Shown in pieces: positions 504-55,134 of a stretch of DNA of 64,000 bases. The position numbers and the translations under genes are program-made. How positions within the stretch are numbered: position 1 is the first letter of the stretch; each line of letters starts with the position of its first letter. The stretch covers positions 1 to 64,000 of the IMG/VR virus record IMGVR_UViG_3300028802_000009. One strand, given 5' to 3'. The stretch comes from a virus. The notes beneath the pieces were generated by a model. The model was not told where the DNA came from and made no database searches. It saw only the letters and a program-made list of their open reading frames with translations.

Positions 504-1157
504 CTAGCCCCACTCGGGGGAGTCAGCCTTCTGCTTCTGCCGCTTTCCAGGCTGGGACGCTGACGATCGCTTTGGGGTGAACAGCCCCTGAATCGCATCG
601 GCCTGACTAGATAGCTCCGACAAGTCTTCCCCGACCCACCCATGGGCTAGGTCGACGTTTGCTGTGATGTCAGCCACGCGAGAGGCAATCTTGAGAAGGT
701 CTGCCTTGGCCCGCACTGAGTCGAATCGTTTGCCAGCGGCGACCAGCCTATCGATGGTTGCATCGGTCTCAGCTACCTTGGTTACGATGTCCTCCGCCAT
801 CTCGACGTTAGAAATCAGGTTGTCGTAAGAAGCAGTCCGCATCTCGGCCTCCAATGTATGACTATCCCACTCGATAAATGGGTTAGTCGATGAGTACCGT
901 GCCCGCCGGAACGGAAGCAGATCCCACATCCGGTCTAGGTCGACCGAAACCACGGCCTTACCGTTAGCCAGAAACTCGTCTAGCGCGATACGAGCCGAGC
1001 GAGCAGATTTAGTGGACCCCACGATGAGACGTAGAACGGATACAGGCCCGAGCATGTACCTCTGGCCGTCAGGAACCTGGACATAGTCCACCACGCCATC
1101 AGTCCCGACGGTGACCATGCCCATGCGAGCACCCCCGGCGACTCGTTTATTCGCCAC
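504..1157 (-). CDS. Hypothetical protein, probable internal head protein (start GTG 1157 or ATG 1124; nested start at 842)
   Basis: Open frame with helical C-terminal half. Internal GGAGG-6nt-ATG at 842 begins MRTAS. Confidence 0.7.
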   Translation of the reverse strand: MANKRVAGGARMGMVTVGTDGVVDYVQVPDGQRYMLGPVSVLRLIVGSTKSARSARIALDEFLANGKAVVSVDLDRMWDLLPFRRARYSSTNPFIEWDSHTLEAEMRTASYDNLISNVEMAEDIVTKVAETDATIDRLVAAGKRFDSVRAKADLLKIASRVADITANVDLAHGWVGEDLSELSSQADAIQGLFTPKRSSASQPGKRQKQKADSPEWG

Positions 1158-1899
1158 GGAAGTCATACATTCCTGCCGCCCGCGAACGCGAGATCGAAAA
1201 GTACTTCTTCCCGCCGGCGTTGGACACCATGTTGCCCAAAGTGACGGTTGAGATGCTCCCATCCTGGCGCTTTACCCGCGCCGAGTCGCCCTCCTGAACG
1301 TCGTGGTCTAGGATCGATACCCCCCAAGTCCCGTCTTTCAGTCTGGCCCAAGAGCCGACAGAGTTAGAGAGCCGTGGCCCACGCGAAGGGCCGTCGCCCT
1401 CACCATCTTCATCGCGAGCCGCCTCCTCTTCATCGTCGTCTTCCTCCCGCTCATGTTCTCTCTCGTCTTCCCTCTGCTCGTGGCGGTAACCCCTATCGGC
1501 ATTGTCGTTTCGCGTCTGAGCCCAGCTGTCCAATTGCTCCGCTTTGTTGTCGTACAGCTCAACCAACGACTCTACTCGGTCAGCAAGATTGTCACGCCAG
1601 TTCTGCGTGCGTTTAACGATCGACTCGCTCTTCCCATCAAGCCCGCGATTATCCTTGAGGGACACCAACCGCACCTTGATCGAGCTTTCGCCCACCCCCC
1701 TCGCGGCATTCGAGTGCACCTTGATCGAGGTCGTTATTCGGACCGCTACGATCTTGCTCAAGCGCAGGTCGTAAAAGTAGGTACCCCCGAACACGCCCTG
1801 TTTTGGATGCAGTGCGTGGAAAGCTCGCTTGATGAACTTGTCCATCTCCTCGATGGTGATGCTCGTGAACTTGGCCGCCATGGCTTGCTTAGTTTTCAT
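1147..1899 (-). CDS. Hypothetical protein with acidic linker, small beta-rich C-terminal domain and terminal MYDFR motif
   Basis: 250-aa ORF with ATGA overlap with the helicase stop; N-terminal KQA motif. Confidence 0.75.
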   Translation of the reverse strand: MKTKQAMAAKFTSITIEEMDKFIKRAFHALHPKQGVFGGTYFYDLRLSKIVAVRITTSIKVHSNAARGVGESSIKVRLVSLKDNRGLDGKSESIVKRTQNWRDNLADRVESLVELYDNKAEQLDSWAQTRNDNADRGYRHEQREDEREHEREEDDDEEEAARDEDGEGDGPSRGPRLSNSVGSWARLKDGTWGVSILDHDVQEGDSARVKRQDGSISTVTLGNMVSNAGGKKYFSISRSRAAGMYDFRGE

Positions 1900-4800
1900 G
1901 GCTCCCTCCGGTCATACGTCACGTTGTAAGTCTCATCGGCGCTCTGGTCATCGGAAAAGCCATGAGCTTGTGCAAAACCCATCGGCAGATCGACCGAAGC
2001 AGTCTTGATCTCTGGTTCAGACGACTTGGCCACAGAGTCTGGTTGAACCACGTTCTCGCCACGTACCAGTCCCGCCTCCTCAACGAACTGACTAAGCCCG
2101 CCGCGCTTCGTACCAGCACAAATGATGTTGAGGTTCTTCTGAGCCCGCGTGATAGCCACATAGGCAAGATTGCGCTCGGCCTCGATCCGTTTCTGTTCTT
2201 TCACTGGGTCGGGCGGTGGGTCGCCTGGTTTCGGCTTAATCTCGATCGGGAACTTACCCTTGGTCATCACGACGAAAACGTTTTCCCATTCCGCGCCCTT
2301 CACCTTGTGAACCGTCGACAAAGTCAGCGCTGGCGCGGGCTCATCACCGTGCTCGCTCTCCCACTGCTCTGTGTCGACGCGAAGCTTATCCCCAAGCGCC
2401 CGATATCGAGCGAGTTTTCGCGCGAACCCCGCAGCATTGGAAGGATCCGTCGCGTTGGCGGCGTCATTGGCATTCGGGATGGCCAACTGAAACAGAAACT
2501 GAACAGCCCCAAGTCCAGCGCCCTCCGCGACGGCCTTCTTGTCCTTGTCGACAAGGCCTCCCCCTTCATCTACGGAAATGGCCTCCTCTTTTTCCTCGTC
2601 CGTTCTCTCCTCCTCCGGCTCATCGTCATCCGAAAAGAGCGCGTTATTGAGTGAAATCTGCTCGCGGAGAGTTTTCGTGGATGCCACCTCGTGTCCGGCG
2701 CCACTAGGCCCCTTTTCATAATTGTAGACTGTTGAGGAGATACCATCGAGAATCGTATTCAGAAGCTCGGAGGTCGGCTGCTGAGGATTGTCTTCCATGT
2801 TCATACGTAGAACACGAATGTCACTCGCGAGCCCTTCGAGATTCTCCGTTAGCTGAGAGACCGCCTTCTTATAGAGCCACTCGCCCTTCTCCATAAGCTT
2901 AGCTTCGTAAGGGCGCTTCAAAGCTCGTGCCAAGATAGACACGTTCTTGCCCTCAAGGAGCTTGTTCGGGTTGATCAGGGACTTGTCAACACGGGTCAGT
3001 CGCGCCACGTCGCGCAAAGCCTCGTCAACACACTTCTCTGCCTCATCGAAGTTGAGAAAGGTGTTGCGCTCCGGGCACAGAATCGCCGCCACGAGCGACT
3101 TCTTCATGCTCTCGTACGAGTCACCCGCAGCTAAGTCGAGATACCCGAGAAGTGCTCGCGACTCCGGGGCCTCCAGGAACCCTTTGCCGCTCTTCTTGAC
3201 GTACCGCATCTCGCCGATAATGCACGCTGTCTCAAAGTCGTTGAGTTCCTTGTTAGTCCGCGCCAGAATCGCAAAGCTCTGCAGGGGCTCTCCGTGTTTG
3301 TGCTTGTCAACTATCTCATTGATCACGCCGATAGCCGCCGAAGCCGAGTCCGGGGGAGTATCCACGGTAATCGACGCGGTCCCGTTCTTCTTGCTCGGCG
3401 CCGCTCGACACTCCATGTCAATCTTATCTTCGTTGTGCACCTGAAGGCGGTTCGCCGCTTCGACAATCTCCGGCTCGCATCTGTAGTTGGTGCGAATTTG
3501 CCGGGTCGTCCACCCTTCCTTTTTGGCGAAGGCAACAAACAGCTCCGGCTTGGAGCCGCGGAACTGATAGATGCACTGCTTATCGTCGCCAATCATCCAC
3601 ATGGACTTTCCGTCGCCGGGCGTGATCTTCCCGGACATGATCTCATAGATCTCGTGCTGGACTAGATTCAGGTCCTGCGCTTCGTCGACCAGGATGTGCT
3701 CGAACGCGTTCTGAACGCGCTCACGCTTCTTCGGGTCACTACGCAGGATATCCAACAGAATCTTCTGCATATCCTCCATGTCGCCCAGGCGCTCGCCGCC
3801 CTTGCGATGCGTACCCATAAACTTCCGATGCGCTCCTGATTCGCAAGGTGGCGCCCATCCGGGAGTATCCCCCTTCAGCCCTAGGTACATGTCATACCAG
3901 ATATACCCGAGGGCCTCCGCCTGTGAGCGAACTTCTTGCTTCGCCAACTCCAACGTCACTCCATTCCCGCGCCACTGGTTCAAGAACGAGTTGGCCGCCT
4001 TCGGTTTGGGCGGACCGCTTTTCACCCACTCCAGAGGGAATCCATAGTGCGCCGCAATCACTTCGGGTTTGCAGTCCGCCCAGGTGTTACGAACGGCCAC
4101 GCTCATCGTGGTACCGGTAAGCTTGCCCTTATCGGTGATCAGACGGGGGCTCTGAAGCATCGCCCGTTCAGTCGGACTCCCAAGCCCCGGCGATGATTTG
4201 TTACCAACGACGAAATTCAGAAAGAGCGAATGCATGGTACTGCAATGAACGTTGTTGGTGCCCACCTTCCGGTCGATCTTGCCCTCAAGCTGAAGGGACG
4301 CCTTTCTATTGAAAGTGCACGCCACGATCTTGCCGCTGTCGCAGCCCCGATCATTGATCAGATACGCGATACGAGATACCAGCGTAGTCGACTTACCAGC
4401 ACCGGCACCGGCCGCGACAAGCACCCGACCATCAGTCAACGCGGCCGCCACCTGCTCCGGGTCGAGCGCTTTACCATTATTGATGAACGCGGCAGGAAGG
4501 TTCTTCGGAATCTCGGGGGTGCTGATAACAGCAGCAACCGTCGCGGCAACAATGCCATGAACTTCTGAGGTTGTGGCGGGCTTGTCCTCAATCCCCGCTG
4601 ACCGCAAGGCTTTGGCAGCTGTTGCGGTCGCGTTAGCTTGTACGGCCGCCAGGACATTCTCTTGCTTGGCAAGAGCCTCTTTAGCCTGTTCCGTGCCTGG
4701 AATCGCAGACTGGGTGACCTTCGCGTCCAGAATCTCGGCGCTTGCGCCGACGAGATCATCCGCGACGGCAGCAACCGGATTCAGAAACTGCTGCGACCCC

Positions 4801-5315: not shown

Positions 5316-5327
5316 TCTACTTTCCGT

Positions 5328-5897: not shown

Positions 5898-5974
5898 TAG
5901 GGCGCCTCAACGTGCAGCCAGCACACACAGGAGAGAAAACAAGAAAATCACCGAGGATAGGTGTAGAGGCACCC

Positions 5975-6826: not shown

Positions 6827-7157
6827 CCTCAATACGGCGGAGCATCGCCACATGAGCCAGGCTCAACTCGCAGTCATGAATGGCCGACGCCTCGATTGCC
6901 CTCCGGACCTCGCGGGCCGCTAAGGGGGCAATCCCGAGAGATCGAGTCTTGTAATAGGCTTGAGCGTATGGGCCATCAATCCAAACCGAGCAGAGGGTGT
7001 GGAGCAGGTCCAGGTCATCGGCAAAAGTGAGGTCTTCATCTGGTCCTTCCAAAGCCTCCCTAACCTTTCTGGTTAGGACTTTCCGTAGAGACTTCAGAAG
7101 CCTCTTAATGACACCGTCTCGAAGAAGGTGTTGACTCATGTCGGGCTTCCCGGTCAT
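6696..7157 (-). CDS. Hypothetical helical protein
   Basis: 153-aa ORF filling the gap after the sheath gene; 3' end overlaps the plus-strand gene convergently by ~130 nt. Confidence 0.45.
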   Translation of the reverse strand: MTGKPDMSQHLLRDGVIKRLLKSLRKVLTRKVREALEGPDEDLTFADDLDLLHTLCSVWIDGPYAQAYYKTRSLGIAPLAAREVRRAIEASAIHDCELSLAHVAMLRRIEATRESKRRGYPSRVSKFLRAILTRVGPMMRAIRGVLPWRSPSG

Positions 7158-7230: not shown

Positions 7231-7252
7231 ACTGCGCCACAATGGCTAGGCG

Positions 7253-13390: not shown

Positions 13391-14404
13391 CTAGACCTGA
13401 CTGTGCTCCTCGGTTGCCAGCACAAGGAGCCCTTCAGCGACGGCGGTCATTGGGTCTTTGGCAGCCCTGACTTCGCTGATCTGAATCGGAAAGCCCCGCT
13501 TCTTGATTGCCTCGAATTCCTCCATGAACACTTCCATGAAGCCTCCGGCGCGAGTCGTGCCCCCGCTGAATACGAAGGGGATAGGCTCCGGCAGGTTGAT
13601 CCCTGCCTGGTTCTTTCGGAACTGAAGAGCGATGTTCTCTAGCACGTACTTGATCAGAGACCGAATATAGAGGGCGAGTGCCTCTTCTTCACGAGATTTG
13701 GGCTCGGCGAGATCAACGCCCTTTTCCTTGATGGCGCACATGCGAGCCGACGTATTGCCCACCGCCTTTGCAGCGTGCGAATCAACCCAGTCACCTCCGC
13801 GTGCGACAGAGAAATCCATGCCCTTGATCGTCTGATAAGCCAGCGCAATGTTGCCCATACCAGAGCCAAAGCTCACGGACAGACCAGAGAAGTTCTCCGC
13901 GGCACATTGCGAGTAGATGATCGCCATGGCCTCGTTCATGGGATGGGGCGTGTATCCAAGCTCACCCAAGATCTTCCGAAAGACCTCTTGGTGATAGATA
14001 ATATCCTGAGCGGTATCATCCACGGGCGACGCCGGAACACTGTAGTAGCAATGCTCCGCCTTCACGACGGGATCGCCAATGACATTTGAAATCAGCAAGC
14101 TGAGAATCTGCTGGGCATCCAACTCCCCAGCCGCAATCACGCCCTTGCTCAATGGCCGGCGCACCTCTCGGTTGAACAGATTAGCCATGGTCAGCGCGGA
14201 GTCTCCGAGTACCACCAGAGTTCCTTGGCGCTCTACGTAGTCGACCTTGGATAGGCGGAGCGTCTTCTTGGCCTCCAGATCCAGGTCAAGAAATGCGTCC
14301 CGAATTCGCCTCAGCTCCAAGCTATCCCCGTCCGCCAACTGGCGAGCTGAGACAATATTCATGGTGCCTAGGTCGAGCCCACACGCGGGCTTGTATTTTG
14401 ACAT
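13391..14404 (-). CDS. Actin-like ATPase (MreB/MamK/ParM superfamily)
   Basis: Phosphate-1 GLDLGTMN, RRPL..GVI, connect-1 NEAMA, phosphate-2 SFGSGMGN, GGDWVD, adenosine SGGTT, C-terminal DPMTAVAEG. SD GGAG favours ATG 14404. Confidence 0.88.
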   Translation of the reverse strand: MSKYKPACGLDLGTMNIVSARQLADGDSLELRRIRDAFLDLDLEAKKTLRLSKVDYVERQGTLVVLGDSALTMANLFNREVRRPLSKGVIAAGELDAQQILSLLISNVIGDPVVKAEHCYYSVPASPVDDTAQDIIYHQEVFRKILGELGYTPHPMNEAMAIIYSQCAAENFSGLSVSFGSGMGNIALAYQTIKGMDFSVARGGDWVDSHAAKAVGNTSARMCAIKEKGVDLAEPKSREEEALALYIRSLIKYVLENIALQFRKNQAGINLPEPIPFVFSGGTTRAGGFMEVFMEEFEAIKKRGFPIQISEVRAAKDPMTAVAEGLLVLATEEHSQV

Positions 14405-14442
14405 CTCTATCTCCATCCTAAAGCCCTGTGCTTGGGCGGGGT

Positions 14443-16470: not shown

Positions 16471-17013
16471 TCAGCTAGACTTCCTCATGGATTTGCGCAC
16501 TTGCTTCGCCACCTCGACCCTAAATTTCTTACGCAGAAACTCGCGAGTCTCTTCCTTGGCGCGCTCTATAAAGTCGGATGGTGGTCTTCCTGGATGCAAC
16601 CAGCCTTTTTTCCGCCCAACATTTGGCCCTGTCATCGGCCCTTGCGTCCAAGTCAACGACCGCGCATGAGCGCTCCGGAAAATCAGCTTTCCTGTCTCCG
16701 TGATGATCGGGATTGGGCGCCGAGCCTTCTTGAGCCACCTCATTTGCCCACGCTTTTGGCCTAGCACGAGGGCGTGAAACCCAGGATGGTCGGTTGTCAC
16801 CACAAGAGACGCCGGCCGGGCCTCGATCTGAATGGATTTGACAAGGGACTTCTTGGCTCTGACCGAGTACGTGGTCTGCGTGAGCTTACGCTTGAGACGG
16901 ACCATCAGTTCCCGGCGTGCTTTACGCAAGACACTGCTCATATCGCCGATGGTGATCCCGTGCGGGAACAACGGCTTTACCATCATGCGGGCGGCTATGA
17001 CCTTCTTGCCCAT
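16471..17013 (-). CDS. Basic neck/tail-completion protein (HK97 gp10-like / virion morphogenesis family)
   Basis: Highly basic; WLHPGRPPSDFIERA motif; TAATG overlap with the upstream gene gives start 17013. Confidence 0.55.
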   Translation of the reverse strand: MGKKVIAARMMVKPLFPHGITIGDMSSVLRKARRELMVRLKRKLTQTTYSVRAKKSLVKSIQIEARPASLVVTTDHPGFHALVLGQKRGQMRWLKKARRPIPIITETGKLIFRSAHARSLTWTQGPMTGPNVGRKKGWLHPGRPPSDFIERAKEETREFLRKKFRVEVAKQVRKSMRKSS

Positions 17014-18374
17014 TAGTACTCGATGTTCTCCCAAACCTTAGTGCGGCCTCTAAGCTCCCGCTCATTCGGAATGTTTGGCTTCTCCGTGATGCTCGTATCG
17101 GCCTCGCGCTCGGGTCCGGACGGTGCGAATTGCACGGCCGCGAACTTCACTGGGTTGCCGACCGGAACCTGGTAACGGATGTCCTTCTCATCGAGGTGGC
17201 CGATGTTGAAATGCTGCTGAAGCACCATGCCGCGATTCGAGGGGAACCGAACGGCGCCTATCGCGTATCGCTCACCGTTGAGCTTCACCACGAAATCGCG
17301 CTGCGACAAGATAGGAGCCGGCCCTGTCCACACCTCATACGCGTGTTCGACAGTGCGCCCAGTCTCCTTTTGAGAGATACGGCGCTCTGCATCATCAGGT
17401 GCAATCAAGGCATCGTAGGGTCCCTCGTACCCACCTAGAAACCCGGTGCCGTAGCACTTGGGACAGTCGTTGATAGGCTGCTTGTGATACCCGTCCGGGA
17501 CGCACGAGCAAGGAACGCCGACGTGCTTGCGTAGAAATATCTTCACCCGCTCGCCGCCTTGCTCCAGGATGAAGCGATTGCGACGCACGGATTCGCGCCA
17601 GATGTAGTCGAGTTTTTCGATCTCCATCGAGTTCGTGGCGGTCGCAAACTCAATAGGTGTCTCGATCAAGTCTTCGCATTGCACCTGACTGAGGTCGCAG
17701 CCCACGCGAACACCGACACTAGTGACGCGATAGAAGACACGCTGCCCGAGATCCGTTCGTACCAGCTCGCGATTACGCCGATACGTGCAGGTTACCGTGC
17801 TGTTGGGTCCTGGCACCAAGGCCGGGTCGTAGTTCTGCCGCGCCACGTCCGCATGGACGTACGGGTTGATCTCTACTTCGCCCGAAAACCCGTGCACCGC
17901 CAATGGAGTGACAGTGACTCCGTCGATTTTGACCCAGACATCATCCGGCAGATCTGCTGTGACAGCTTGCGAGCCCTCGCGCACGATCGGGCTATGCAAT
18001 GTCTTGAAGACCCAACGCGGTGCGTCCGGACCGGCAGCCGACTCTCCTTCGCCTTTGAGAACGAACCTGTCCGTGACATCTTCATCTACGATCAGCTCGT
18101 TATCGGTCTGGTCGCGCCAAAAGTTGCTACAGATGAGCAACTCTGAGATGCGCTCAAAAGGTCCGTACTCAGAGTCGAACGAGCGATAGAGGTTGACCCC
18201 GAGCAGCTGGTAGAGGCTGTTCAAGGCAAGTGTCGCTGGGGAGTCCCACCGGAGATCAAAGATTCCGGGCCGGTACCCACTGGTCATAAAAAGATTGAGC
18301 GGGGGCAGCGGCCAAGGAGTCTTTGTGTACTCTAGCTCTGTGGTGTTCCAATCGCGATTTGATGCGTAAGGCAC
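17013..18374 (-). CDS. Neck/head-closure-like protein with FN3-like N-terminus and CxC..CxxCxGxG zinc finger
   Basis: PLNL...LRW...GVNLYRS (FN3-like); CSC...CPKCYGTGFLGGY; neck-module context. Confidence 0.55.
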   Translation of the reverse strand: MPYASNRDWNTTELEYTKTPWPLPPLNLFMTSGYRPGIFDLRWDSPATLALNSLYQLLGVNLYRSFDSEYGPFERISELLICSNFWRDQTDNELIVDEDVTDRFVLKGEGESAAGPDAPRWVFKTLHSPIVREGSQAVTADLPDDVWVKIDGVTVTPLAVHGFSGEVEINPYVHADVARQNYDPALVPGPNSTVTCTYRRNRELVRTDLGQRVFYRVTSVGVRVGCDLSQVQCEDLIETPIEFATATNSMEIEKLDYIWRESVRRNRFILEQGGERVKIFLRKHVGVPCSCVPDGYHKQPINDCPKCYGTGFLGGYEGPYDALIAPDDAERRISQKETGRTVEHAYEVWTGPAPILSQRDFVVKLNGERYAIGAVRFPSNRGMVLQQHFNIGHLDEKDIRYQVPVGNPVKFAAVQFAPSGPEREADTSITEKPNIPNERELRGRTKVWENIEY

Positions 18375-20399: not shown

Positions 20400-21599
20400 C
20401 TATAACAATCCGTCGTCCGAAAACGCTTGGTAAACTGCGGTCAAGATCAGCTTGCGGCTGCGGGCGTTGAGGTCTTTCTCGATGTTCGACCACGTGAACG
20501 ACAAGCGCAACGACGAATCAACCAACTTGGTACCGCTCATGTGCTCGCTGAGCTTGTGTGCCATTCGCACTGTCTCATCGACGATTTGCTGCATGAACGC
20601 GCGTACCTCGTGAGGGTCGTTTACGTAGTCTTTCTCATTCTTGACCTTGTAGTCCTTGTCATACTCATACTGGAGTGGCTTGCGGAACGCGGTCTCAGCG
20701 GCATGGGTCGTCTCGTGAATCAAGACAGTGTACAGACCAAAGGGAAGACAAGTCTCGGAAGTGCACTCGCTGAGTGGCGTGAAACGATCCGTGACAAACG
20801 AAGCCAGGTCCGTGTTGGACCCGTTGGTGGCGAGATATTCGTTCGGAGACATGGCCCCATTCAACTGAAGCGTCACCTGGACGAAAGCCTCTCCATTTTC
20901 AAAGTGCCGTGTCCCAGCCGTCCCCATTAGCACCGGATATGCCTTACGGGTTGCACGGGCCGAGATCACCAGCACATCGATTCTGAGCTGCTCTGTGCCA
21001 TCCACTGAATCGACGTAGAATCTCGCTTCCGCCACGGCTGTATCACGAGCACCGATCGGCTGGTCCGGATGCGGGTGACGTTCCAACCACCGCTTTACCT
21101 GAGGAACAAGCTCGTTTTGGACGACCCGTCTGATCAACGCCTTGTCTATGCGTATCGGTCGCGTCGCCATTCTGCGGTCATAGCTGTACCCCATCTTGAC
21201 CTCCTTCAGCTGGATACCAGGGCGCAAGATGATCTCCCGCTCATGTCCGAACGCCTTGCCGCCAAGAGGCATCTCATCCTGGCCGTAATGCACCAAGGCG
21301 TCCTTGGCCCCGATCTCGTACGCCTTGAACAACGCCGGGTCCAGGTTGGGCTTCCGCGGCGAGACCGATGCGCCCCCCATGTCGCCGCGTGGCTTGTACC
21401 GATACACGGTCGCACTAGCGCCGTGCTCGGCGCGAAACGCCCGCTCCACGTCTGCGTCGTAGGCTGCCTTGGCTTTAGGCGACAAGCCCTCGTACGCCTC
21501 TAGCAGAGCGTTCTTGCTGGACCTGGACGGATGGTGGACCCAGTCCATGGCCGCTGGGTACATGGCATCGATCGCTTCGCCTAGCCACACGCCCAGCAT
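20400..21599 (-). CDS. Fusion of ADP-ribosyltransferase-like domain and HExxH zincin-like domain
   Basis: N-terminal VYR..SVS..EREI (R-S-E pattern); C-terminal LIHETTHAAE...YVNDPHEVRAF; internal AAGGAGGT SD before ATG 21194. Confidence 0.6.
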   Translation of the reverse strand: MLGVWLGEAIDAMYPAAMDWVHHPSRSSKNALLEAYEGLSPKAKAAYDADVERAFRAEHGASATVYRYKPRGDMGGASVSPRKPNLDPALFKAYEIGAKDALVHYGQDEMPLGGKAFGHEREIILRPGIQLKEVKMGYSYDRRMATRPIRIDKALIRRVVQNELVPQVKRWLERHPHPDQPIGARDTAVAEARFYVDSVDGTEQLRIDVLVISARATRKAYPVLMGTAGTRHFENGEAFVQVTLQLNGAMSPNEYLATNGSNTDLASFVTDRFTPLSECTSETCLPFGLYTVLIHETTHAAETAFRKPLQYEYDKDYKVKNEKDYVNDPHEVRAFMQQIVDETVRMAHKLSEHMSGTKLVDSSLRLSFTWSNIEKDLNARSRKLILTAVYQAFSDDGLL

Positions 21600-24031: not shown

Positions 24032-24415
24032 TTACGCCTCGATGCAGATCAACTGTCCCGCAGGCATCCGGACTTGATCTTGCGCATCCACCGTTCGCGG
24101 AGCACTCAAATTGCCTATGTACAGGATGTGACCGCCTGCACTAGCATCCATGAACGTGAAAGCAGCTATGGAACCCCAGAAAGTTTGAGCGACGGGGAAC
24201 AACACATCGTCGACACTCACAACTTTGCCGTCCACTGGTACCGTGAACTGAACCAGTTGCCGAAAATAGTCGCCGGCAGAGACCTCGGTGCCGGCATCAC
24301 CAACGCCAGGGGCTACTGTGTAAAGCGCCACATAGATAGCCGGAGGAGGCGTGAACGGGATGCCACGCAGGGCAGCGTTCAAGAAATTATTATCAAGATA
24401 GATCGACTTAGGCAT
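24032..24415 (-). CDS. Small tail-fibre-associated structural protein, paralogue of 25553..25954
   Basis: YVALYT.AP...GTEV...Y.R..V.F....F..A...WG.I....L..G.L...R.V...D pattern. Confidence 0.65.
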   Translation of the reverse strand: MPKSIYLDNNFLNAALRGIPFTPPPAIYVALYTVAPGVGDAGTEVSAGDYFRQLVQFTVPVDGKVVSVDDVLFPVAQTFWGSIAAFTFMDASAGGHILYIGNLSAPRTVDAQDQVRMPAGQLICIEA

Positions 24416-24417
24416 AG

Positions 24418-24831
24418 CTAGCAGCAACTCCCACTACCAGGAGGCTTGATAAAAGAAGCTGAGAGGCCAGACTCCATCGCCGGTGCTGATTGCACTACGT
24501 CGAAATCTTGAGCGGAGATCTGCTGACCAGCGGGATAAGTGAGAAGGTTCCGCCAGTAGCCGAGCGCATCGGGTCGAAACCGCACGCTGTAGAAGCCCGG
24601 ATGTCCGGGGATCTCGTTGAAGTAAATGCGGCCCGCCGAGACCTGTGCGTCAGTGACGGCGTTCCCAGATACCAAAGGCCAAGGCTGGATGGTGTTGTTG
24701 AAAAAGACCTGAGAGACCAAGACTCCCGGAACTAGCCCCGTCGCGCGCGTAAAGCCGTCGGGCGCAAAGAAGTCAACCTGGTCCAACACGACCTGGTTAG
24801 CCTGAACGATTCTACCGCGCGTGGTTGCCAT
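24418..24831 (-). CDS. Ig-like virion structural protein
   Basis: FNEIPGHPGFYSVRFRPDALGYWR beta-sandwich pattern. Confidence 0.6.
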   Translation of the reverse strand: MATTRGRIVQANQVVLDQVDFFAPDGFTRATGLVPGVLVSQVFFNNTIQPWPLVSGNAVTDAQVSAGRIYFNEIPGHPGFYSVRFRPDALGYWRNLLTYPAGQQISAQDFDVVQSAPAMESGLSASFIKPPGSGSCC

Positions 24832-25552: not shown

Positions 25553-25954
25553 TTAGCTCTCCGCTACAGAGATCGCTCCGACAGCGAAGTTCAGCGAATC
25601 GCCAATCGCGACAGTCTTCGGGGCTGTAAGAGCGCCGTAATAGAGTTGGTTGCCCGTGCCACTGACGGCGCTGCAAACAGCAATGGATGTAATGTCACCC
25701 CATGCCGCGGCCGCCGCGGGGAAAGTCACAGCTGCATCATTTGATGCGGTAGCTCCGTTTGCATTCGGAACTGGAGCCCCGAACGTAACCGGCAGCCTGT
25801 CATAGTCTGCGGCATCCACCTCCAAGCCTTCGCCAGTAGCGGTCGGCGCGGTCTTGAAGAGCGCAACAAACAATGCCGCAGGCCCTGTGTAAGCAACGGC
25901 GTCCAGAACAGCATTGAGTACCAAGACAGCAAGAGTTTGTTTTTTAGCAGCCAT
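25553..25954 (-). CDS. Small tail-fibre-associated structural protein, paralogue of 24032..24415
   Basis: LFVALFKTAP...GLEV...YDR..V.F...FPAA...WGDI...LYYGAL...K.V..GD...F pattern. Confidence 0.7.
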   Translation of the reverse strand: MAAKKQTLAVLVLNAVLDAVAYTGPAALFVALFKTAPTATGEGLEVDAADYDRLPVTFGAPVPNANGATASNDAAVTFPAAAAAWGDITSIAVCSAVSGTGNQLYYGALTAPKTVAIGDSLNFAVGAISVAES

Positions 25955-28912: not shown

Positions 28913-28991
28913 TAGGGTGCTCTCTCCTAGGCGAGTACGAGAAAATGTCTCGTGAGAGATAGGAGATAAAAGGAAGTGCGGTCTTGGTCCG

Positions 28992-43193: not shown

Positions 43194-44858
43194 TTAGACC
43201 TTCCAGGGATCTTGACCCCTGCTGGCAGTGCTTGTCCTAGCTTCCTTGAACTTGTCCTCGTACTTATCGGTGTTGGCTTTCCATTCCTTGGCAGCGTCCT
43301 CGGACATGTTGTCCGTCGGATCGGCGGGCTTACCTTCCTCGAAACGAGACTCCTTCTCATCCGAAGCGGACTTGAACTTGTCTTCGTACTTATCGGTGTT
43401 CGACTTCCATTCCTTGGCGTCTTCTTCGGACATGTTGTCAGTAGGGTCGGCTGGCTTGCCTTCCTCGAACTTTGACTCCTTTTCATCCGACGCGGAGCGC
43501 AGTAAGCCTTTAGCTTCACGGTTGATCAGCCTCTCAGCCTCTCTTGAGAGAACATCGGCGTTCGCTTCCAACCCATCTACGGATACCGACTTGCGACCCA
43601 TTATTACCTGAATCGCGCCAAGCCCCTCTTCATCAATCGAGACGAGACAGCTGATGTTGTCCCCCGGATCACTCTCCCGCTCAGCAACCTCCAACACTAC
43701 CCCGCCGCCGAAATCACGACGGATCTCCGTGAGCAAACTCGGATACAAGCGGTTGAACCTGGCTTCGACCCTTTGCAGGACATCCCTATCGCCCGCAGCA
43801 GACTTCTTGAACTTGTCCTCGTACTTATCGGTGTTGGATTTCCACTTCTTGGCGTCCTCTTCGGACATCCCCTCAGTAGGATCGGCGGGCTTGCCTTCCT
43901 CGAACCGAGACTCCTTCTCATCCGATGCAAGCACCAGCGATTCGAGCACATCGGGCTTCAGATAGCGCCGCGCAAGACGCACGCCCTTGCTCATGCGAAT
44001 GGCTAGACCAGCCACATCGTTCGCCCCAACGCTGTCACACATGAGCCCGATCTCCGAGACAATGCTCGCCAGCTGATCGAAGGCTTGCCGCATCTGGTTG
44101 CCAGCCGCGCCTCGGAGGTAAGCGATACGAGCGGCCCCGCGGATATACTCAAACCCTAGAGCCATGTTGTATGGCCCGTCGACCCCAAGCTCGCCAACGT
44201 CAGCCTTCTTTGGACGCTCCGACGCTTTGACCTCAATGGCATCGCCCAGCACTCGCCGGAGAATAGCCGCCACCATCAAACGACTAGGACGGCCCTCATC
44301 CTTGCTGAGACCAGCAACCAGTCGGCGCAACGTCACAGCCACCTCCTGGTTGGACGACGCGGTACGTACCGAGTCTCCTTCAAGGGATGCGATCAAGCGA
44401 GTCAGAGACTCCGTATCGATGTGCCCCGTTTTTTCGATCTCAGCGGCGACGTGCGTCAACTGTGTGGCAGCTTCTTCAACTCTCATGGGTGACTCCGGTT
44501 GTGATGACTTTCTCTTTACTCGACGTACACGGACGTCTTTCAAGGCGTCCTCCAGCTGTTCGACCTTCTCAGGCCTGAGGTCGTCTTTGATCTCCTCGTA
44601 ATCCCATCGCGCTACAGCCATCGCCGCCGCATCCAAGGACTTGCTCACGCGCATCAAAGTGTCCGGGATCGCATGCAGCAGATGACCCGCAACCTCAAAA
44701 AACTGGTCACGATGGTCAGACTTCTCGATGAGCGTTGAAGCCTCCTCGATGTAATCTTTGAGCTGATTGCAGCGAAGCCGAGCATCGCCAATCTCCTCTA
44801 GTAGGAACACGGAGATTCCCGAGGCTGTTTTGACTTGCTTCAAGCACCGATCTTCCAA
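43194..44858 (-). CDS. Putative internal head polyprotein with three 42-aa charged repeats
   Basis: TTG start with GAGGAG SD; many (K/R)xA sites; repeat SDEKES.FEEGKPADPT..MSE..AK.WK.NTDKYEDKFK. Confidence 0.75.
   Translation of the reverse strand: MEDRCLKQVKTASGISVFLLEEIGDARLRCNQLKDYIEEASTLIEKSDHRDQFFEVAGHLLHAIPDTLMRVSKSLDAAAMAVARWDYEEIKDDLRPEKVEQLEDALKDVRVRRVKRKSSQPESPMRVEEAATQLTHVAAEIEKTGHIDTESLTRLIASLEGDSVRTASSNQEVAVTLRRLVAGLSKDEGRPSRLMVAAILRRVLGDAIEVKASERPKKADVGELGVDGPYNMALGFEYIRGAARIAYLRGAAGNQMRQAFDQLASIVSEIGLMCDSVGANDVAGLAIRMSKGVRLARRYLKPDVLESLVLASDEKESRFEEGKPADPTEGMSEEDAKKWKSNTDKYEDKFKKSAAGDRDVLQRVEARFNRLYPSLLTEIRRDFGGGVVLEVAERESDPGDNISCLVSIDEEGLGAIQVIMGRKSVSVDGLEANADVLSREAERLINREAKGLLRSASDEKESKFEEGKPADPTDNMSEEDAKEWKSNTDKYEDKFKSASDEKESRFEEGKPADPTDNMSEDAAKEWKANTDKYEDKFKEARTSTASRGQDPWKV
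43245..43928. repeat. Three ~123-bp coding direct repeats (43245-43367, 43371-43493, 43806-43928)
   Basis: Near-identical DNA, e.g. cttgaacttgtc.tcgtacttatcggtgtt; tandem period 126 bp. Confidence 0.9.
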
Positions 44859-46205: not shown

Positions 46206-47087
46206 TCAGACGCGAGTGATAACCACACGGGTCAAACCACGCGGGTTGAATGCACCGATACCGAGATTCTCGAAGCACGAGAAACCGATCGTGCGCGCCT
46301 TCGGGTCATCCGCCGAAAGAACGGTGATCTCGGTACGAACCGGGATACGACCAAACTGCTCAGGCTCGCAGCAAACATATGTGAAGCCGGCAGGTACGAG
46401 ACGCGACGTGATGATCTGAGCGCCCCAGATAACTGCCTGGAGACCAGTCTTCAGCAACGTGGCCTGGCTCTCAATGTCCAGGATGTCGCGACCGAACTTA
46501 CGAATGTCAGCGTAGTCGACCGCGTTCATGTAGATGCGAGCGACGCGCAAGTCGTGACGCTCGATCTCGGCAAACGCGTCAGCAAGAACTGACGGGCTGA
46601 TGGGGGCGACGACAGGAACGTCCGCGTTCGTCTGACCAGGGAGTGTGTCGAAACCAGAGACAGCGATGCTATCCATGATTGCAAACGTCCGCTCGTCTTC
46701 CGCGGCCTGAATCTGTGCCTTCGCAAGATCCTGAGCGCGCTCGATCAGATCGAATCGACGCTCCTTGATCTGCGTGAGTGGGATCTCCGGGTTCGAGGCA
46801 ATCTCGAACAGCGGGAAGATCACGCGACGTGGCTTCTGGATCGCAAGGATGTTCTCGCCCTCTTCGCCGACAACGAACGCCGTAACATCCGGGTCCTTGT
46901 CGTAGATCGGGAGAGCACCATCCGGAAGCTGCTCGACCAAGAAGGTCTTACGACCTACGGCCGAATAGTCGCGGCGCAGACGCAAAGGCTGCACCATCGA
47001 AGCAGCGAGCTTCTGGCGGCCAGCAGCGGTCTTGATGTACTCACTAATGACCTGCTGCTTGAGCTGGTTAGATACTTGGTGTGCCAT
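46206..47087 (-). CDS. Major capsid protein (HK97 fold, 293 aa)
   Basis: Follows protease, scaffold and decoration genes and is followed by a terminator; IQAAED...F, IYMN...YADIRK, IWGAQIITSR.VP, IGF..FE.LG....NP pattern. Confidence 0.88.
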   Translation of the reverse strand: MAHQVSNQLKQQVISEYIKTAAGRQKLAASMVQPLRLRRDYSAVGRKTFLVEQLPDGALPIYDKDPDVTAFVVGEEGENILAIQKPRRVIFPLFEIASNPEIPLTQIKERRFDLIERAQDLAKAQIQAAEDERTFAIMDSIAVSGFDTLPGQTNADVPVVAPISPSVLADAFAEIERHDLRVARIYMNAVDYADIRKFGRDILDIESQATLLKTGLQAVIWGAQIITSRLVPAGFTYVCCEPEQFGRIPVRTEITVLSADDPKARTIGFSCFENLGIGAFNPRGLTRVVITRV

Positions 47088-49136: not shown

Positions 49137-49187
49137 GGCAGGGGTTTTCCTTTTCCTCGTAGGCTTGCAGTTGTATAGAAAGAAAGT

Positions 49188-50738
49188 TCACGACCGACCT
49201 AAGGCGTAGAGTCGACCCTTTTCAAGAAGTTTACTCGCCTCAGAGCCGGTCACTACCCGGCCAATTACTTGACGGCACGCCGCCAAGTAGGTCTCATCAT
49301 CTTCATATGGAGCAGTACCGCCCACACTAAGCACTGTCCTATAAACTCTTGTTTCACCGGCCATAGACGATTTCTTCGTCAAGACATCTAGAACGCGAGA
49401 GACCGCAAGGATCTCACGGCCCGTTAAACCGGCTTGCCTCACCCGGCGCCATCCTCCGTTCTTCTGGAGGATGAGCCCTTGCAAGACTCGCTTGGCTTGT
49501 GCCTTTCCAACAAACGAAACCACGATCTTAGCGATGCGTCGCCACTGAGGGTGTTCGAGTGCCGAACGGATCAAGCTCTCATTCTGCTTGTTGTTGTCGA
49601 CGATCTCGCGAACTTCGTTCGCTTCGCCCTTACTAATCTCTTGCCGAACATGCTCGATGGCCTTGTCCCGAAGAGCCGTCGACAGATCCTTGACCGCCTT
49701 ACTGATGGGGTCTTCCTCTGCGCCTCCCGGTGGAGCCGGCGCGGGTGCGCCCTCCGCGGGAGCTGCCGCAGGATCTTCCGCGGGCGCTTGAGTCTGTTCT
49801 GCGGGTGCCTGCTCTGCTGGCGCTTGCTCTGCTGGCGCCTGGCCCTGACCTTGGGCACGCAAAACGCGAGCGGCTTTAGAAACCCCTCCGGGTATCGGCG
49901 ATGGAGCGGATTTCGAGAAAGCCATGTGAATCTTGTTCTCAGCGTGCGCGACTTCTTCAGCCGACAAAACGCTACGCAGAACGGCGCCCTTGAAGGCGGG
50001 ATTGGCTACCCACGATGCCTCGATGAAGCGCACCGAGGTCGGATCCGTGTGGTGCCCGCAAAGCTCTGCGACCTTCCGCCCAGTCTTCGATTCATCCAAG
50101 AACTGCTGGCCCTTGAAATACCGGATGCACGCGCATAGCTGGGTTTCGTCTTTGGCGACGTTGCCGCACTTCGTGCAGGTCGTTGAGCTGGTCGAGCACC
50201 CCATGCTCAGAGTCCCGAGCTGGCCGGACTTGATCGACCGAATCAGGGCCGCGTGCTTTAGGTCGTTGGCAATCAGGATGTCGACGTAAACCGAGTCCCC
50301 AATGTCACGAGCCGCCGCGTCAATGATGCGCCCCTGAGATAGCTCGGGGATCTGCACGTGCTCGATGTACGACTGCGCTCCGACAAACGACTTGAATGAC
50401 GACATCAGGAGCTTGCGCTCGAATGCGTCGTTGTTGTTGTTGATGTAGCGCTGCGTTTCGGGCGTGACGTAGTAGTCCTGATATGGCCGGTCGATCTCAA
50501 ACCCATCGACAAAGTGGCGCCCGACCGGAGCGCTAGCGTTGTCAACGTCGACAGACGCGACAATCGTCGCGTGGCTAAGCATGTACCTAGCTGGGTCGTA
50601 CTCCTGTAAGATGACCCGTGCAGTTCTCTTCTGAAAATCTAGCTCGGGCAAGATCGCCGTACGACGCAATGCATCCCACTCGGCGAACTTGATTCCCGGC
50701 TTCTGAAGAGTAGCTTTAGCGAACTTGAGAAATGCCAA
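49188..50738 (-). CDS. Prohead (capsid maturation) serine protease with inserted zinc ribbon
   Basis: YIEHVQ (His), GRIIDA (Asp), TLSMGC (Ser), CTKCG...C, FIEASWVANPAF (E.S.V..PA typical of herpes-assemblin/HK97-type proteases); QAPAE linker repeats. Confidence 0.8.
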   Translation of the reverse strand: MAFLKFAKATLQKPGIKFAEWDALRRTAILPELDFQKRTARVILQEYDPARYMLSHATIVASVDVDNASAPVGRHFVDGFEIDRPYQDYYVTPETQRYINNNNDAFERKLLMSSFKSFVGAQSYIEHVQIPELSQGRIIDAAARDIGDSVYVDILIANDLKHAALIRSIKSGQLGTLSMGCSTSSTTCTKCGNVAKDETQLCACIRYFKGQQFLDESKTGRKVAELCGHHTDPTSVRFIEASWVANPAFKGAVLRSVLSAEEVAHAENKIHMAFSKSAPSPIPGGVSKAARVLRAQGQGQAPAEQAPAEQAPAEQTQAPAEDPAAAPAEGAPAPAPPGGAEEDPISKAVKDLSTALRDKAIEHVRQEISKGEANEVREIVDNNKQNESLIRSALEHPQWRRIAKIVVSFVGKAQAKRVLQGLILQKNGGWRRVRQAGLTGREILAVSRVLDVLTKKSSMAGETRVYRTVLSVGGTAPYEDDETYLAACRQVIGRVVTGSEASKLLEKGRLYALGRS

Positions 50739-50744
50739 GGCTGT

Positions 50745-51470: not shown

Positions 51471-51528
51471 GTTTGCGGTCCTCGTGCGGTCTCACACTCG
51501 CTCGGGCCAGCTTCAGGCCCCACACGGG

Positions 51529-54500
51529 TCACTTAGCCAGCGGGCGACCACTCGTGGACTTGCCGCTGCGAACGCCAGACGAATCGTCGGACTTGTACGC
51601 CTTCATATACGGCTCGTCGGCTTCCATCTGAATAGGCTGCTGAGGATTCTTGAACGTGTCCATGTACTTCTCATCGGAGTCGCGCTGCAACACCTGCGCT
51701 AGCTTAGAGCGGCCGATCTCGCTCGCCTGACGGTTCAGCAACGATTCCTCACCGTAGGTTGCGGCTTCTAGGTCGTCCGCGATCTTATCGATCGCGTTCA
51801 CCAGATTCTTAGCCGCCGTAAAGTCCATCCCCCACTTGCCATGGTTAGACTGGACAACGGAGGCCATGCGGTCCAGGCGGGCCAAAAGCCCATCAGCCTG
51901 GGCGGTCTCAAGTTGAAGTTTGTTGTTCGGCATCGTGTTCCTCGCAGTTCTTGATCTAACCGTAAGTAGCGTCTCGTTCTCAGACACACCTGCAAGGCGT
52001 GCCAAGAGCTTGTTGTAAACAGTCGGATGTATCGCGTGATCGTAATTCTCATCGCGCAGAGCGAGATCCAGAGCCGCACGCAACTGGGTATCCCGGACAA
52101 CGCCCTCGACCTTGGTCGACAGCGCTGGCGTGGAGAGCCATTCGCGAGCCGCCTTTAGAAGCCGTGTATAGACCGGCTCACCGAGGTCTCTAGCCTGTGG
52201 CTGCTGCCACTTTCGATAAGGCTCGAAACCCTCATGGCCCTTGGGATAGGGGGCGACGCCCCAATAGACAGCAGAACGATCCATCGCACAAGTAGCGGAA
52301 TAAAAAGAAAAGGCGTGCCCAGTGGTCCGATCCGCGACTCTTTGGGCGGCACGGCGCGAAGCGAAGTCATCCCAGATTTCCTGCGCGAACCCTGCCTGTT
52401 CTTCCGGGTCCTCAACGTCCCCCTTGTAGCGGGGCGGCTTGCGCGGAGGCTTCGGGGCGGCAATCTTCTGCTTTCTCAGACGTTCGCTACCCGTGGGAGG
52501 TGGCTCAGCGTCAACATCACCCGACTCCTTGAGCTTCTTGGAGTATGCCTTGTAGTCTGACTCGAACTCCTTGCTCGCCTTATGAAGCTGCTCCCGATAG
52601 TCCTGGGCGGACTTCTTGTACTTCACCATCTCTTGTTCGTAGTGCCGATTGTCCTGCTGATCTAAGATGCCCTGGACCGCATGCTGCTTGTCGGGTCGCA
52701 GATTCGCCAGATGCTTCATGACGCGATCCCGAAACGTCGTGTATGTGTCCTGCGAAGTCGCCTCGTCCGGGTATCGTTTTGACCGTTCGCGAAGAAACTC
52801 GGTCGCCTTACCGAGGCCCTTGGCAATCGCCTCCGGTGACTGTCGCTCGGAGATGGGGGCAAACCCCTTCGGGTCCAAGAATCGCTTGCGGGCCTCGCGG
52901 TAATCATTCGCCTGACAATAGCTAACAGCCAGCTTTTGGAGGTCCGGGTCCTTAGTGGACTTCAAAAGCTTCTGCGCTTGTTTATCTGAGAGGTCGGATG
53001 GGTCCGACTTGAGCTGCAACCCGCCGTAGAACAGACGCTCTGCCTCAGCAGTCGCCCGCTTACTGCGGTCCTCTGGGCTCTCTCCAGAACCTGAGAGCGC
53101 AAAGTTGGACATGGCGTCAGCCAGCTCCTTTGGCGCCCCCTTCCTAGCGAAGGCTTTAGCGACCGCACTCTCCGCGGCCAAACTCATAGCAACGGTCTTC
53201 ACCTGATGCTTACGGTAAGCTTTCGCACCCTCAATCGGATCGGTGATGCTCTTGAACTCAACATCATTACCGTCCGCGTCCTTCACCATCTTGGGTGCCG
53301 GGACATTGTTGGGGTCGGTCGTGTAGAAGGAGGACGCCTCGTCAACAAGCGACGAGATATCCTCGGGGACGCGAATAGCGGTCACCTTCTCATAGTCTGC
53401 GACCATTTCCTGTATCTCGTCCGGGTGGTACCGGGGCTTGTTGGCGAACAGTATCTTGGCAGCCAGCTCACGCGGGAACGTCTTCATGACGAGCCGATCA
53501 GCTGCCTGGCGTTCTGCCTCTGTGACAGGTCTATCTGGCTGAAACGGGGCGAACTTGGGCGCGTTGGGGTCCTCTGGCGCCGTAGGCTTCGCTTTTGCCG
53601 GCCCCTTCTTCGCTTTGGCAACACCGGCCGAGCTGCGGGGTTTGAGCGATTTCGCGAGGGACTTAAGCCGTTTGGCCGTATCGCGAGATGTGTTAGGTTT
53701 GGCAGCCGTGTCTTGGAGTAACTGAATGGCCTGGTCGACAAGTTCTGGCTTTATCGGGTCACCTCCCTGTAAATAGAACACAAGCTTGCCGACTGCGTTG
53801 GAGGCTGAAGCTGGGTTAAACCCCGCGTCCTCCCAGACTTTGGTGATCTCAGCTTCCAGAGCTTCATCATCCGACTGAGCGGGCTTGGCGGCAGGTGCTC
53901 CTTGTGCCGGAGCAGGCTGTTGGGCGGGAGGTGGCTGTTGACCAGGGCCTGGCTGTTGAGGTGGCTGTTGACCAGGGGCAGCTTGTGGTGGTGCCCCTTG
54001 AGCGGGAGCCTGCGTAGGAGCAGCTTGCGGGACCTCACCGGGTGTGGCTTCTTCGCCGGGAGCAACGGGCTTTTTCTTGCCCTTTTGTTTCTGCTCCTTG
54101 ATGCTTTCGCGCGCGCGAGCCTCCACCTCCTCATCAGTCGGCGGCCCTTTTTTCTGGAGTTCAGCAAGAGCGGCTTTCGTTTCCGCCAGCTCCTTCATGA
54201 TTTGCTCGCGCTCGGCGGTCGCCTTGAGAGCCTCCTTGATGGCAGCGCGCTCCTTTTGGGCGCCCTCTGACTTTGGGTCCTCCTTCAGCTCCTCTTTGAC
54301 CTCCTTCAAGCGGTTCTTGAGCTGGACGCGTTCAGCGGCCGAGTCGCTCGTGTCTGGAGCTTCATCCGGACCTTTCTTGGGCTTTGGAGCTTGCCCTTGG
54401 ACGCTCATGACGCGCGCCAAGTCCGAAACCGTCTTGATGCCTTCTGGCAGCGCTCTTCCCTGCATAAAGGGTTTAGCGCTGTAGCCAGGATTGTTCTTGG

Positions 54501-55134
54501 CGAACTGAGAGTTATCCGAGTCGGGTCTCCGGAATGACTTCAGGAATGCCTCGAACTTGGGATCCTCTTTCGCCAGCTGTCTCAGGGCATCGCGTGCCGC
54601 CATGTCCTTTTCGACATTCGGCTGCGCCGCGGGCTCCTTGGCTTGAGGTTCTTTCTCTTCGCCGGTTGGCTTTGGTACAAGTTTGAGGTTTGGCTTACCG
54701 ACAGGCTTTGGCTTATCAGCTGGCTTTGGCTCGGCAGTCGGCTTTGGCTTGCCCTTGAAAGTCTCTTCTTCGGAGTCATCCGCGAGTTCGTATTTGCCAG
54801 GCAGCTCTTTAAGCTTCTCCGGGCTGATCTTACCCACCCATCCTGTGGCTTTGGATCGGACCTTGACCTTCTTCCCCTGTGGGTCAGTCGCCTTGGCGCC
54901 CGGAGCGTTGGCCGCCCAGCGACGCAGGATTCTCGCCGCGGTCGATCCACCGATATCTTTGAAGTTTTTGGACTGGTCCTTGTCCCTATTGTCTAGGTCA
55001 GGGTCGTCATCCGGCTCCACCCGCTCCCTGCGTAGGTCATGCCGTGCCGGCTTAACCTTGGGGCTCGGGCGAACAAGCCGCTCGACTTCTTCATCCTCCC
55101 GCTCTCCGCGGCTCTTCGTAGCTTCGCGATCCAT
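51529..55134 (-). CDS. Large charged/low-complexity head protein (1201 aa) with nested in-frame starts
   Basis: Lys/Glu/Pro/Gln-rich; lies between portal and protease; candidate internal starts at 52284 and 51933. Confidence 0.75.
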   Translation of the reverse strand: MDREATKSRGEREDEEVERLVRPSPKVKPARHDLRRERVEPDDDPDLDNRDKDQSKNFKDIGGSTAARILRRWAANAPGAKATDPQGKKVKVRSKATGWVGKISPEKLKELPGKYELADDSEEETFKGKPKPTAEPKPADKPKPVGKPNLKLVPKPTGEEKEPQAKEPAAQPNVEKDMAARDALRQLAKEDPKFEAFLKSFRRPDSDNSQFAKNNPGYSAKPFMQGRALPEGIKTVSDLARVMSVQGQAPKPKKGPDEAPDTSDSAAERVQLKNRLKEVKEELKEDPKSEGAQKERAAIKEALKATAEREQIMKELAETKAALAELQKKGPPTDEEVEARARESIKEQKQKGKKKPVAPGEEATPGEVPQAAPTQAPAQGAPPQAAPGQQPPQQPGPGQQPPPAQQPAPAQGAPAAKPAQSDDEALEAEITKVWEDAGFNPASASNAVGKLVFYLQGGDPIKPELVDQAIQLLQDTAAKPNTSRDTAKRLKSLAKSLKPRSSAGVAKAKKGPAKAKPTAPEDPNAPKFAPFQPDRPVTEAERQAADRLVMKTFPRELAAKILFANKPRYHPDEIQEMVADYEKVTAIRVPEDISSLVDEASSFYTTDPNNVPAPKMVKDADGNDVEFKSITDPIEGAKAYRKHQVKTVAMSLAAESAVAKAFARKGAPKELADAMSNFALSGSGESPEDRSKRATAEAERLFYGGLQLKSDPSDLSDKQAQKLLKSTKDPDLQKLAVSYCQANDYREARKRFLDPKGFAPISERQSPEAIAKGLGKATEFLRERSKRYPDEATSQDTYTTFRDRVMKHLANLRPDKQHAVQGILDQQDNRHYEQEMVKYKKSAQDYREQLHKASKEFESDYKAYSKKLKESGDVDAEPPPTGSERLRKQKIAAPKPPRKPPRYKGDVEDPEEQAGFAQEIWDDFASRRAAQRVADRTTGHAFSFYSATCAMDRSAVYWGVAPYPKGHEGFEPYRKWQQPQARDLGEPVYTRLLKAAREWLSTPALSTKVEGVVRDTQLRAALDLALRDENYDHAIHPTVYNKLLARLAGVSENETLLTVRSRTARNTMPNNKLQLETAQADGLLARLDRMASVVQSNHGKWGMDFTAAKNLVNAIDKIADDLEAATYGEESLLNRQASEIGRSKLAQVLQRDSDEKYMDTFKNPQQPIQMEADEPYMKAYKSDDSSGVRSGKSTSGRPLAK

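Follow-up and report, generated by a model that had tools for sequence, protein, structure and literature searches.

Four open reading frames (ORFs) in a 64-kb stretch of phage DNA probably possess conserved internal translation starts on chains of modules joined in frame, an arrangement that would give rise to co-terminal protein isoforms. The stretch, hereafter the window, covers positions 1–64,000 of a 73-kb virus record in IMG/VR (IMGVR_UViG_3300028802_000009) with a CheckV completeness of 15%, and its minus strand carries all of its long ORFs. A preliminary description of the sequence had flagged five internal ATG codons: ATG 842 in ORF A, ATG 21194 in ORF B, ATG 44486 in ORF C, and ATG 52284 and ATG 51933 in ORF D. 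All five codons and every upstream word named with them are present as claimed on the minus strand. When compared with relatives, the flagged codons were placed at module borders, and the Met residue was kept along with a Shine-Dalgarno (SD) sequence or a promoter-like motif across divergent relatives. By this comparison, the flagged ATG in each case is the conserved start of the downstream module. The question of whether related phages encode the segments as separate genes was answered positively for three of the four ORFs (D, B and C).

The window belongs to a family of 400–530 kb phages. IMG/VR contains 581 relatives of its capsid protein; their contigs reach 529 kb and several bear terminal repeats, and 80 loci were taken from these capsid-gene relatives. 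Among GenBank records, the nearest is an uncultured phage of 485 kb (85% identity), followed by Tunturiibacter phage Tunturi_5 at 47% and Bacillus phage G at 40%. Megablast of 16 kb of the window against GenBank phages gave no match, and neither the four ORFs nor nine separate modules matched a Pfam or PHROG family at the curated cut-offs.

An SD duplex of −6 kcal or better was found at 32 of the 317 in-frame internal ATGs of the window (10.1%), at 11.2% of 484 out-of-frame ATGs and at 37.9% of 66 ORF starts. As the in-frame rate does not exceed the out-of-frame rate, the single sequence gives no support to nested starts. Ranked by SD strength among the 317 internal ATGs, ATG 21194 was first, ATG 842 seventh, ATG 44486 31st, ATG 51933 34th and ATG 52284 311th. 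The feature of the five sites that exceeds chance is their conservation in relatives, not their count in the window. The background in relatives was determined with 3376 internal in-frame ATGs, among which 10.7% reach −5.9 kcal and 16.7% reach −5.3 kcal. In the control genes for portal, capsid, protease and a 241-amino acid (aa) protein, fully conserved internal Mets sit in conserved cores and have no SD.

ORF D and its end module comprise the following features:

51529–55134, minus strand: ORF D, 1201 aa, a chain of modules directly downstream of the portal gene
51529–51933, minus strand: 134-aa module from ATG 51933 (M1068), a separate gene in approximately half of the relatives
51939–51943, minus strand: GAGGA, an SD-like site (read as 51943–51939) 5 nucleotides (nt) before ATG 51933

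The ORF starts 26 nt past the portal stop and consists of a conserved N-terminal segment of ~65 aa, a variable middle, and further modules at residues ~530–900, 951–1067 and 1068–1201. Among 45 related loci the 134-aa module is a separate ORF in 22 and fused in 23, and in seven of the former only one stop codon divides the two frames. The separate genes begin at a codon that aligns with M1068 of ORF D. In all 16 distinct fused junctions that were examined, a GAGG-type word is located 5–9 nt upstream with a duplex of −5.9 to −8.9. The residues encoded at this site differ by clade (ARNT, ARRK, VREK, EGN and others), and the Arg codons within it are AGG in 9/9 cases versus an overall AGG usage of 15.7%. 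The anchor failed to locate four of the 23 fused loci: L041, L056 and L067 show the Met with the SD unscored, and L057 was unread. A profile of the module was also compared with 1.84 billion representative proteins, producing 210 hits of which the best 150 were classified as fused (74, with the module at the end and >200 residues upstream), stand-alone (40), intermediate (19) or partial (17). Among these best 150, a Met lies within −8 to +5 of the module start in 93/93 extended proteins, compared with 19.6% of control windows.

The 134-aa module is single copy in each of five complete genomes, one of which also gave a weak second hit. The idea that it is a general tag on several proteins was rejected on the basis of this single-copy status. 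As the 134-aa protein is the product of a conserved, single-copy gene, a free copy could be provided in the fused state only by internal initiation or by cleavage. On a protease tree of 39 rows, the fused or separate state of the junction requires three changes versus a mean of 13.5 in shuffles. With so few changes, the fused state is old and stable, yet the start signals persist. The retained SD and Met at the fused junction point to initiation rather than cleavage, and the other flagged sites show this pattern as well. The earlier proposal that genes fuse freely is not supported by the three changes at this junction, nor by ORF A which is fused in 14/14 relatives. An AlphaFold model of the module has a mean predicted local distance difference test (pLDDT) score of 69, with a helical hairpin at residues 10–60 and a low-confidence tail; Foldseek comparison of this model with viral models gave no match at E 0.001 or better.

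ORF D and its parts correspond to no Pfam or PHROG family, and no MuF (SPP1 gp7-like) domain was detected among Pfam matches with E up to 0.05. A pattern scan for close ORF D relatives confirmed none. The Tunturi_5 counterpart of ORF D is annotated as a 'DNA ejection protein', and gp328 of that phage has no sequence match to ORF D. A separate observation concerns nine relatives in which the 134-aa gene is separate (L031, L034, L044, L046, L054, L071, L074, L077 and L083). In these loci an extra nested-looking unit is evident at the C-terminal end of the ORF D homolog, where motif, SD and in-frame ATG open the last 100–134 codons (e.g., L044 3730) with >870 open codons upstream.

The second flagged codon in ORF D is preceded by a compact motif instead of an SD, as is the start of ORF D itself:

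52282–52284, minus strand: ATG 52284 (M951; MDRSA), a conserved Met with no SD
52300–52312, minus strand: CTTTTCTTTTTAT, compact promoter-like motif 15 nt before ATG 52284, with the consensus T-Y-C-Y-N-Y-T-T-A-T-S
55151–55160, minus strand: TCTTTCGATG, motif variant 16 nt before the ATG of ORF D (55134), right after the portal stop, no SD

M951 is encoded by ATG in 31 and GTG in two of 35 relatives. The residue is kept in 27/27 sequences of the full-length ORF D alignment in which most other internal Mets are retained in <50%. The motif at this position reads TTCTWCTTATYC, with YTT(A/G)T kept in 33/33 relatives, and is written in TCT, ACT and TAT codons that account for 16–27% of usage. Spacing between strict motif and ATG at the M951 junction is 15 or 18 nt in all but two contexts. 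An unguided scan of third-codon-position conservation across 976 columns of ORF D placed the top peak at residues 941–944, on the motif (1.78 bits versus a mean of 0.38 and a 99th percentile of 1.04); nowhere else in the 1201-aa ORF are synonymous sites as strongly constrained as at this motif (TCYYTTAT). A motif variant also is found 16–19 nt before the SD-less start of ORF D in both the window and relatives. The resemblance between MDRSA at ATG 52284 and MDREA at the start of ORF D, to which the preliminary description drew attention, is not conserved as sequence, but the layout of motif and ATG is alike at both starts. A frameshift site at the T-rich motif was considered and rejected, as most relatives have TCT TCT TAT or similar, which is not slippery.

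The same motif recurs in ORF A:

504–1124, minus strand: ORF A, real extent ~206 aa, comprising an N-domain, a variable linker and a C-part from M141 (ATG 842)
840–882, minus strand: motif CCCATTTAT (882–874), GGAGG (852–848) and ATG 842 (MRTAS), kept in relatives

The ORF is open for 252 aa (504–1262), but its first 46 codons score −0.30 per codon versus a gene mean of +0.21 and overlap the upstream gene, and relatives align to it only from residue 45–49. The first 46 codons thus appear non-coding and the real start lies at ~1124. Motif, variable linker, SD and Met are present in each of 14 relatives, with an SD of −5.3 or better in 13/14 and a motif core of TTAT in 12 and CTAT in two. A single ORF spans the border in all 14 relatives read. 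Stop-codon recoding or readthrough in the ORF A matches was rejected because the stops within the matches are a mixture of TAA, TAG and TGA and are located not at the junction but at the C-terminal ends of the relatives' genes, which in the closest relatives come earlier. ORF A adjoins a gene for a UvrD-type helicase, and the earlier grouping of the ORFs as head or cargo genes has no support in the case of ORF A.

The word YCYNYTTAT is located 30–45 nt before the conserved Met of ORF A, in a frame other than that used in ORF D. Since the residues it encodes differ there as well, the motif is an element of the nucleotide sequence, and the two T-rich stretches that had been likened to promoters prove to be one and the same element at this level. 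In 35 distinct related loci (708 kb), 73 copies are found on the coding strand versus 23 on the other strand, and many are in intergenic DNA 15–77 nt upstream of ordinary gene starts. An intergenic copy in the window is positioned as follows:

28965–28974, minus strand: motif TCCTTTTATC, intergenic, 62 nt before the ATG of the gene at 28052–28912, which has its own SD

A similar word in Tunturi_5 is flanked by a terminator-like hairpin and the gp329 SD. No upstream −35-like partner was seen in 65 motif contexts. Judging by this distribution, the motif is probably a late promoter of the phage or some other element associated with starts. In the phage G multi-omics paper, the promoters are software predictions (PMC12484599). 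Another strict copy (18285–18294, minus strand) is 80 nt inside the ORF at 17013–18374, the true start of which may be downstream of GTG 18374.

In ORF C, the flagged codon follows the best-conserved part of the protein:

43194–44858, minus strand: ORF C, 554 aa, a conserved N-module (aa 1–124) followed by the part from M125
44484–44496, minus strand: GGAG (44496–44493) and ATG 44486 (M125; MRVEE), conserved in relatives

In G002, a distant phage of 402 kb, the N-module (residues 1 to ~124) has a gene of its own that encodes 135 aa. Closer relatives have a single ORF C, often with 80–200 extra residues inserted at the N-module border. M125 is encoded by ATG in 31 of 32 anchored relatives and by ATA in one, and the SD reaches −5.3 or better in 27/31 relatives versus the 16.7% background. 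The Met columns of ORFs C and A were picked by eye and located with typed anchors, leaving two of 34 rows for ORF C and two of 16 for ORF A unanchored. At the end of ORF C (43194–43900, minus strand), a unit of ~42 aa is repeated three times; most relatives have one to three copies of it, sometimes in a separate ORF.

ORF B combines a window-specific segment with a module that bears an HExxH motif:

20400–21599, minus strand: ORF B, 399 aa, in which a 135-aa N-module specific to the window runs in frame into a 264-aa HExxH module
21192–21206, minus strand: AAGGAGGT (21206–21199) and ATG 21194 (M136), ancestral start of the HExxH gene, the best SD of the 317
21207–21578, minus strand: insert of ~370 nt absent from the closest relative, coding in the HExxH frame with no stop of its own

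The ORF comes after a gene with a weak connector-like hit. From M136, the HExxH module corresponds to a stand-alone 265-aa gene in a 121-kb relative. In G002 the module instead forms an internal domain of a 1706-aa post-portal ORF to which the N-terminal segment of ORF D also is joined. The module is found at seven places in five of 28 family records, and in the six of these that were read the gene starts at or within a few codons of the M136 position. The closest relative has AGGAGG and a GTG start with TAG three codons upstream. Alignment with this sequence shows that the window has ~370 nt extra between the stop of the upstream gene and the AGGAGG-plus-start. The insert has a coding score of 0.31 per codon and a third-position GC content (GC3) of 0.81, and no homolog was found in 30 related records. 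ATG 21194 is thus where the HExxH gene began before it gained the insert in frame ahead of it. Other observations concern the two parts of ORF B. Language-model look-alikes of the N-module (21195–21599, minus strand) are weak, scoring at most 0.86; ADP-ribosyltransferase toxin families are among them at 0.76–0.81, which constitutes a lead only. In locus L090 (G022:72879-73628) the HExxH gene is without its usual stop and runs into an 824-aa open frame, which is a fusion on the other side. At positions 2751–4732 of the 121-kb relative (L002), three consecutive genes, the third of which is the HExxH gene, share very similar N-terminal peptides of ~20 residues ending in LLE or LLK-E that could be shared targeting peptides or pro-peptides.

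The module anatomy, the retention of Met, motif and SD, and the separate-gene forms in relatives are direct observations, from which we infer initiation at the internal sites, a promoter function for the motif and any role in the phage head. Ribosomes that initiate at the first codon of an ORF would produce the long fusion protein, and those that initiate at the internal site would produce a short protein with the same C-terminus. At 52284 and 842, a transcript starting at the motif may supply the internal site. Output of the short module would exceed that of the long form, which would carry extra modules attached to the short one. A broader proposal, which is tentative and possible rather than probable, is that the family assembles gene trains in which expressible modules are strung in one frame, each with its own late promoter or ribosome-binding site, and in which the 134-aa module docks variable cargo. 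One locus would then yield a ladder of co-C-terminal proteins that form part of the virion set. The shared last module, which occupies the place of a prohead-core gene, would attach larger cargo to the prohead at low copy, and new cargo would be gained, as in ORF B, when a segment inserts in frame ahead of a start that is already there.

Several observations weigh against the proposal of functional internal starts. In-frame ATGs with an SD are no commoner in the window than out-of-frame ones, and ATG 52284 has no SD. The relatives share phylogeny so that counts are not independent, with the fused state of ORF D reflecting approximately three changes, and the junction SD count omits L041, L056, L067 and L057 among the 23 fused loci. 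The counts for ORFs C and A include Met columns chosen by eye and unanchored rows. A structural role is possible for the Met of ORF A, an ORF that is not split in any relative, and the N-module of ORF B exists in this window only. The motif is rare, with four strict copies on the coding strand of the window, and a promoter role is suggested only by its position and strand bias.

Fusion did occur: the 134-aa module is separate in 22/45 loci with a single stop between the frames in seven, few state changes are needed on the tree, and the ORF B insert is window-specific and looks recent. The internal SD and ATG could be relics of stop loss or in-frame insertion that joined the genes, with only the long protein being made. 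However, the SD and Met persist across deep fused clades despite diverged neighboring residues and synonymous sites, AGG occupies 9/9 Arg codons at the SD and Met is found in 93/93 extended proteins. Moreover, under this explanation, which is unlikely, a single-copy module that is its own gene in half of the family would no longer exist in free form in the remainder. It also is rather unlikely that the signals serve other purposes, with the motif acting as a promoter for downstream genes only, the SD-like sites promoting pausing and the Mets being structural. Promoters within upstream coding sequence are common in phages, conserved internal Mets are present in control genes too and every site is at a domain border, but the control Mets are in conserved cores without an SD whereas the flagged SD-bearing Mets are in variable linkers at start-like spacing. 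The Met also matches exactly the start codon of the separate-gene forms, and the 15- or 18-nt spacing from motif to ATG at M951, kept in all but two contexts, resembles that at the start of ORF D.

The preliminary description had supposed that a protease separates the fused proteins again, such that the long ORFs are made whole, the modules are cut apart by the prohead protease, and fusion is neutral and frequent. The prohead protease gene is indeed two genes downstream of ORF D, the 1706-aa post-portal ORF of a distant relative joins the HExxH module and the N-terminal segment of ORF D, and head-packaged proteins of T4 and phiKZ are processed. Nevertheless, no cleavage motif distinguishable from the residues encoded by the SD words was identified at the module borders, fusion is infrequent at the single junction that could be mapped (three changes) and ORF A has no established link to the head. 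Cleavage alone also leaves the conserved SD sites unexplained, and a polyprotein is improbable. The explanation that SD-like words precede in-frame ATGs at background rate and are meaningless fits the near-equal in-frame and out-of-frame rates (10.1 and 11.2%), with ~32 such sites expected in the window, but it is contradicted by the comparative data in which all five sites are conserved in relatives, and is scarcely tenable.

The genomic setting of ORFs C and D is a head module. It includes genes for the large terminase (59233–61308) and the portal (55161–56936), followed by ORF D and the 241-aa gene. The prohead protease gene (49188–50738), a 432-aa gene, a 208-aa gene, the major capsid gene (46206–47087) and a 378-aa gene come next, with ORF C at the end. 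The portal matches PHROG 16240 and the prohead protease PHROG 18299; the protease sequence had no match below E 0.07 among solved structures. The protease and a 303-aa gene are the only matches between Tunturi_5 and the head module of the window. Elsewhere on the minus strand of the window are an actin-like gene at 13391–14416 with a full-length match to Pfam Volactin (E 7e-73), two paralogs at 24032–24427 and 25553–25954 related to the podophage GP4 fiber protein gp80 family, and a gene for a patatin-like phospholipase at 28992–29876. Three successive ORFs at 57352–58957, also on the minus strand, overlap by 112 nt in their longest forms. Two of the three have near-identical sequence ahead of a GTGGAC start, and the ORFs resemble tandem paralogs.

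In-frame nested head genes are well known in the lambda C/Nu3 and Mu I/Z pairs, in which the shorter gene has an internal start with its own ribosome-binding site and shares the C-terminus of the longer gene. As in both of these systems, the long and short parts in the window and its relatives share an open frame that is uninterrupted by stops. The conserved internal starts at 51933, 842, 44486 and 21194, but not that at 52284, have their own ribosome-binding site as in lambda C/Nu3. Unlike either precedent, the 64-kb window alone has four or five sites, the family includes both fused and separate states of one junction, and the products are predicted. The likeness to lambda C/Nu3 that had been proposed previously does not extend to the pairing of protease and scaffold, which is absent here: the prohead protease is encoded by a separate gene whose conserved internal Mets are without an SD, and ORFs A to D have no match to a protease family in Pfam or PHROG. 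In the capsid-maturation module of herpesviruses, a promoter inside the long UL26 gene drives the short in-frame UL26.5 gene. ATG 52284 and ATG 842 similarly each follow a promoter-like motif inside coding sequence, with a promoter role that is putative, although the proteins are unrelated. PMC11565193 is a paper related to UL26/UL26.5. Two further reports describe Cas11b made by internal in-frame translation (10.1101/2024.10.02.616218) and two Fha isoforms in Vibrio cholerae (PMC13389060). As reported there, a conserved internal SD and start in the phage ORFs would generate a small C-terminal protein beside the full-length product, here on the basis of comparison alone, but the biological systems differ.

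Cargo or ejection proteins that are packaged in the head, such as MuF-type proteins, T4 Alt and the internal proteins, are encoded beside the portal gene. ORF D likewise is right after the portal gene, is very long and has a variable middle, and its counterpart in a distant relative carries enzyme-like modules. Unlike MuF-type proteins, ORF D has no MuF or other Pfam domain, and its location in the virion is putative. A search of the literature found no description of a nested in-frame arrangement for this phage family, and a term search of the text of PMC12484599 found no mention of nested or in-frame genes or of polyproteins.

Gene callers assign one protein to each open frame. If the internal starts are functional, huge phages encode more proteins than are counted at present, and annotation misses how the amounts of their head proteins are set. 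The family offers a natural series of fused and separate forms of one gene pair in which the start signals are kept in both, which constitutes a clean system for the evolution of gene fusion, internal initiation and cargo packaging. In addition, the compact motif provides a testable late-promoter candidate for a phage family that has no close cultured member.

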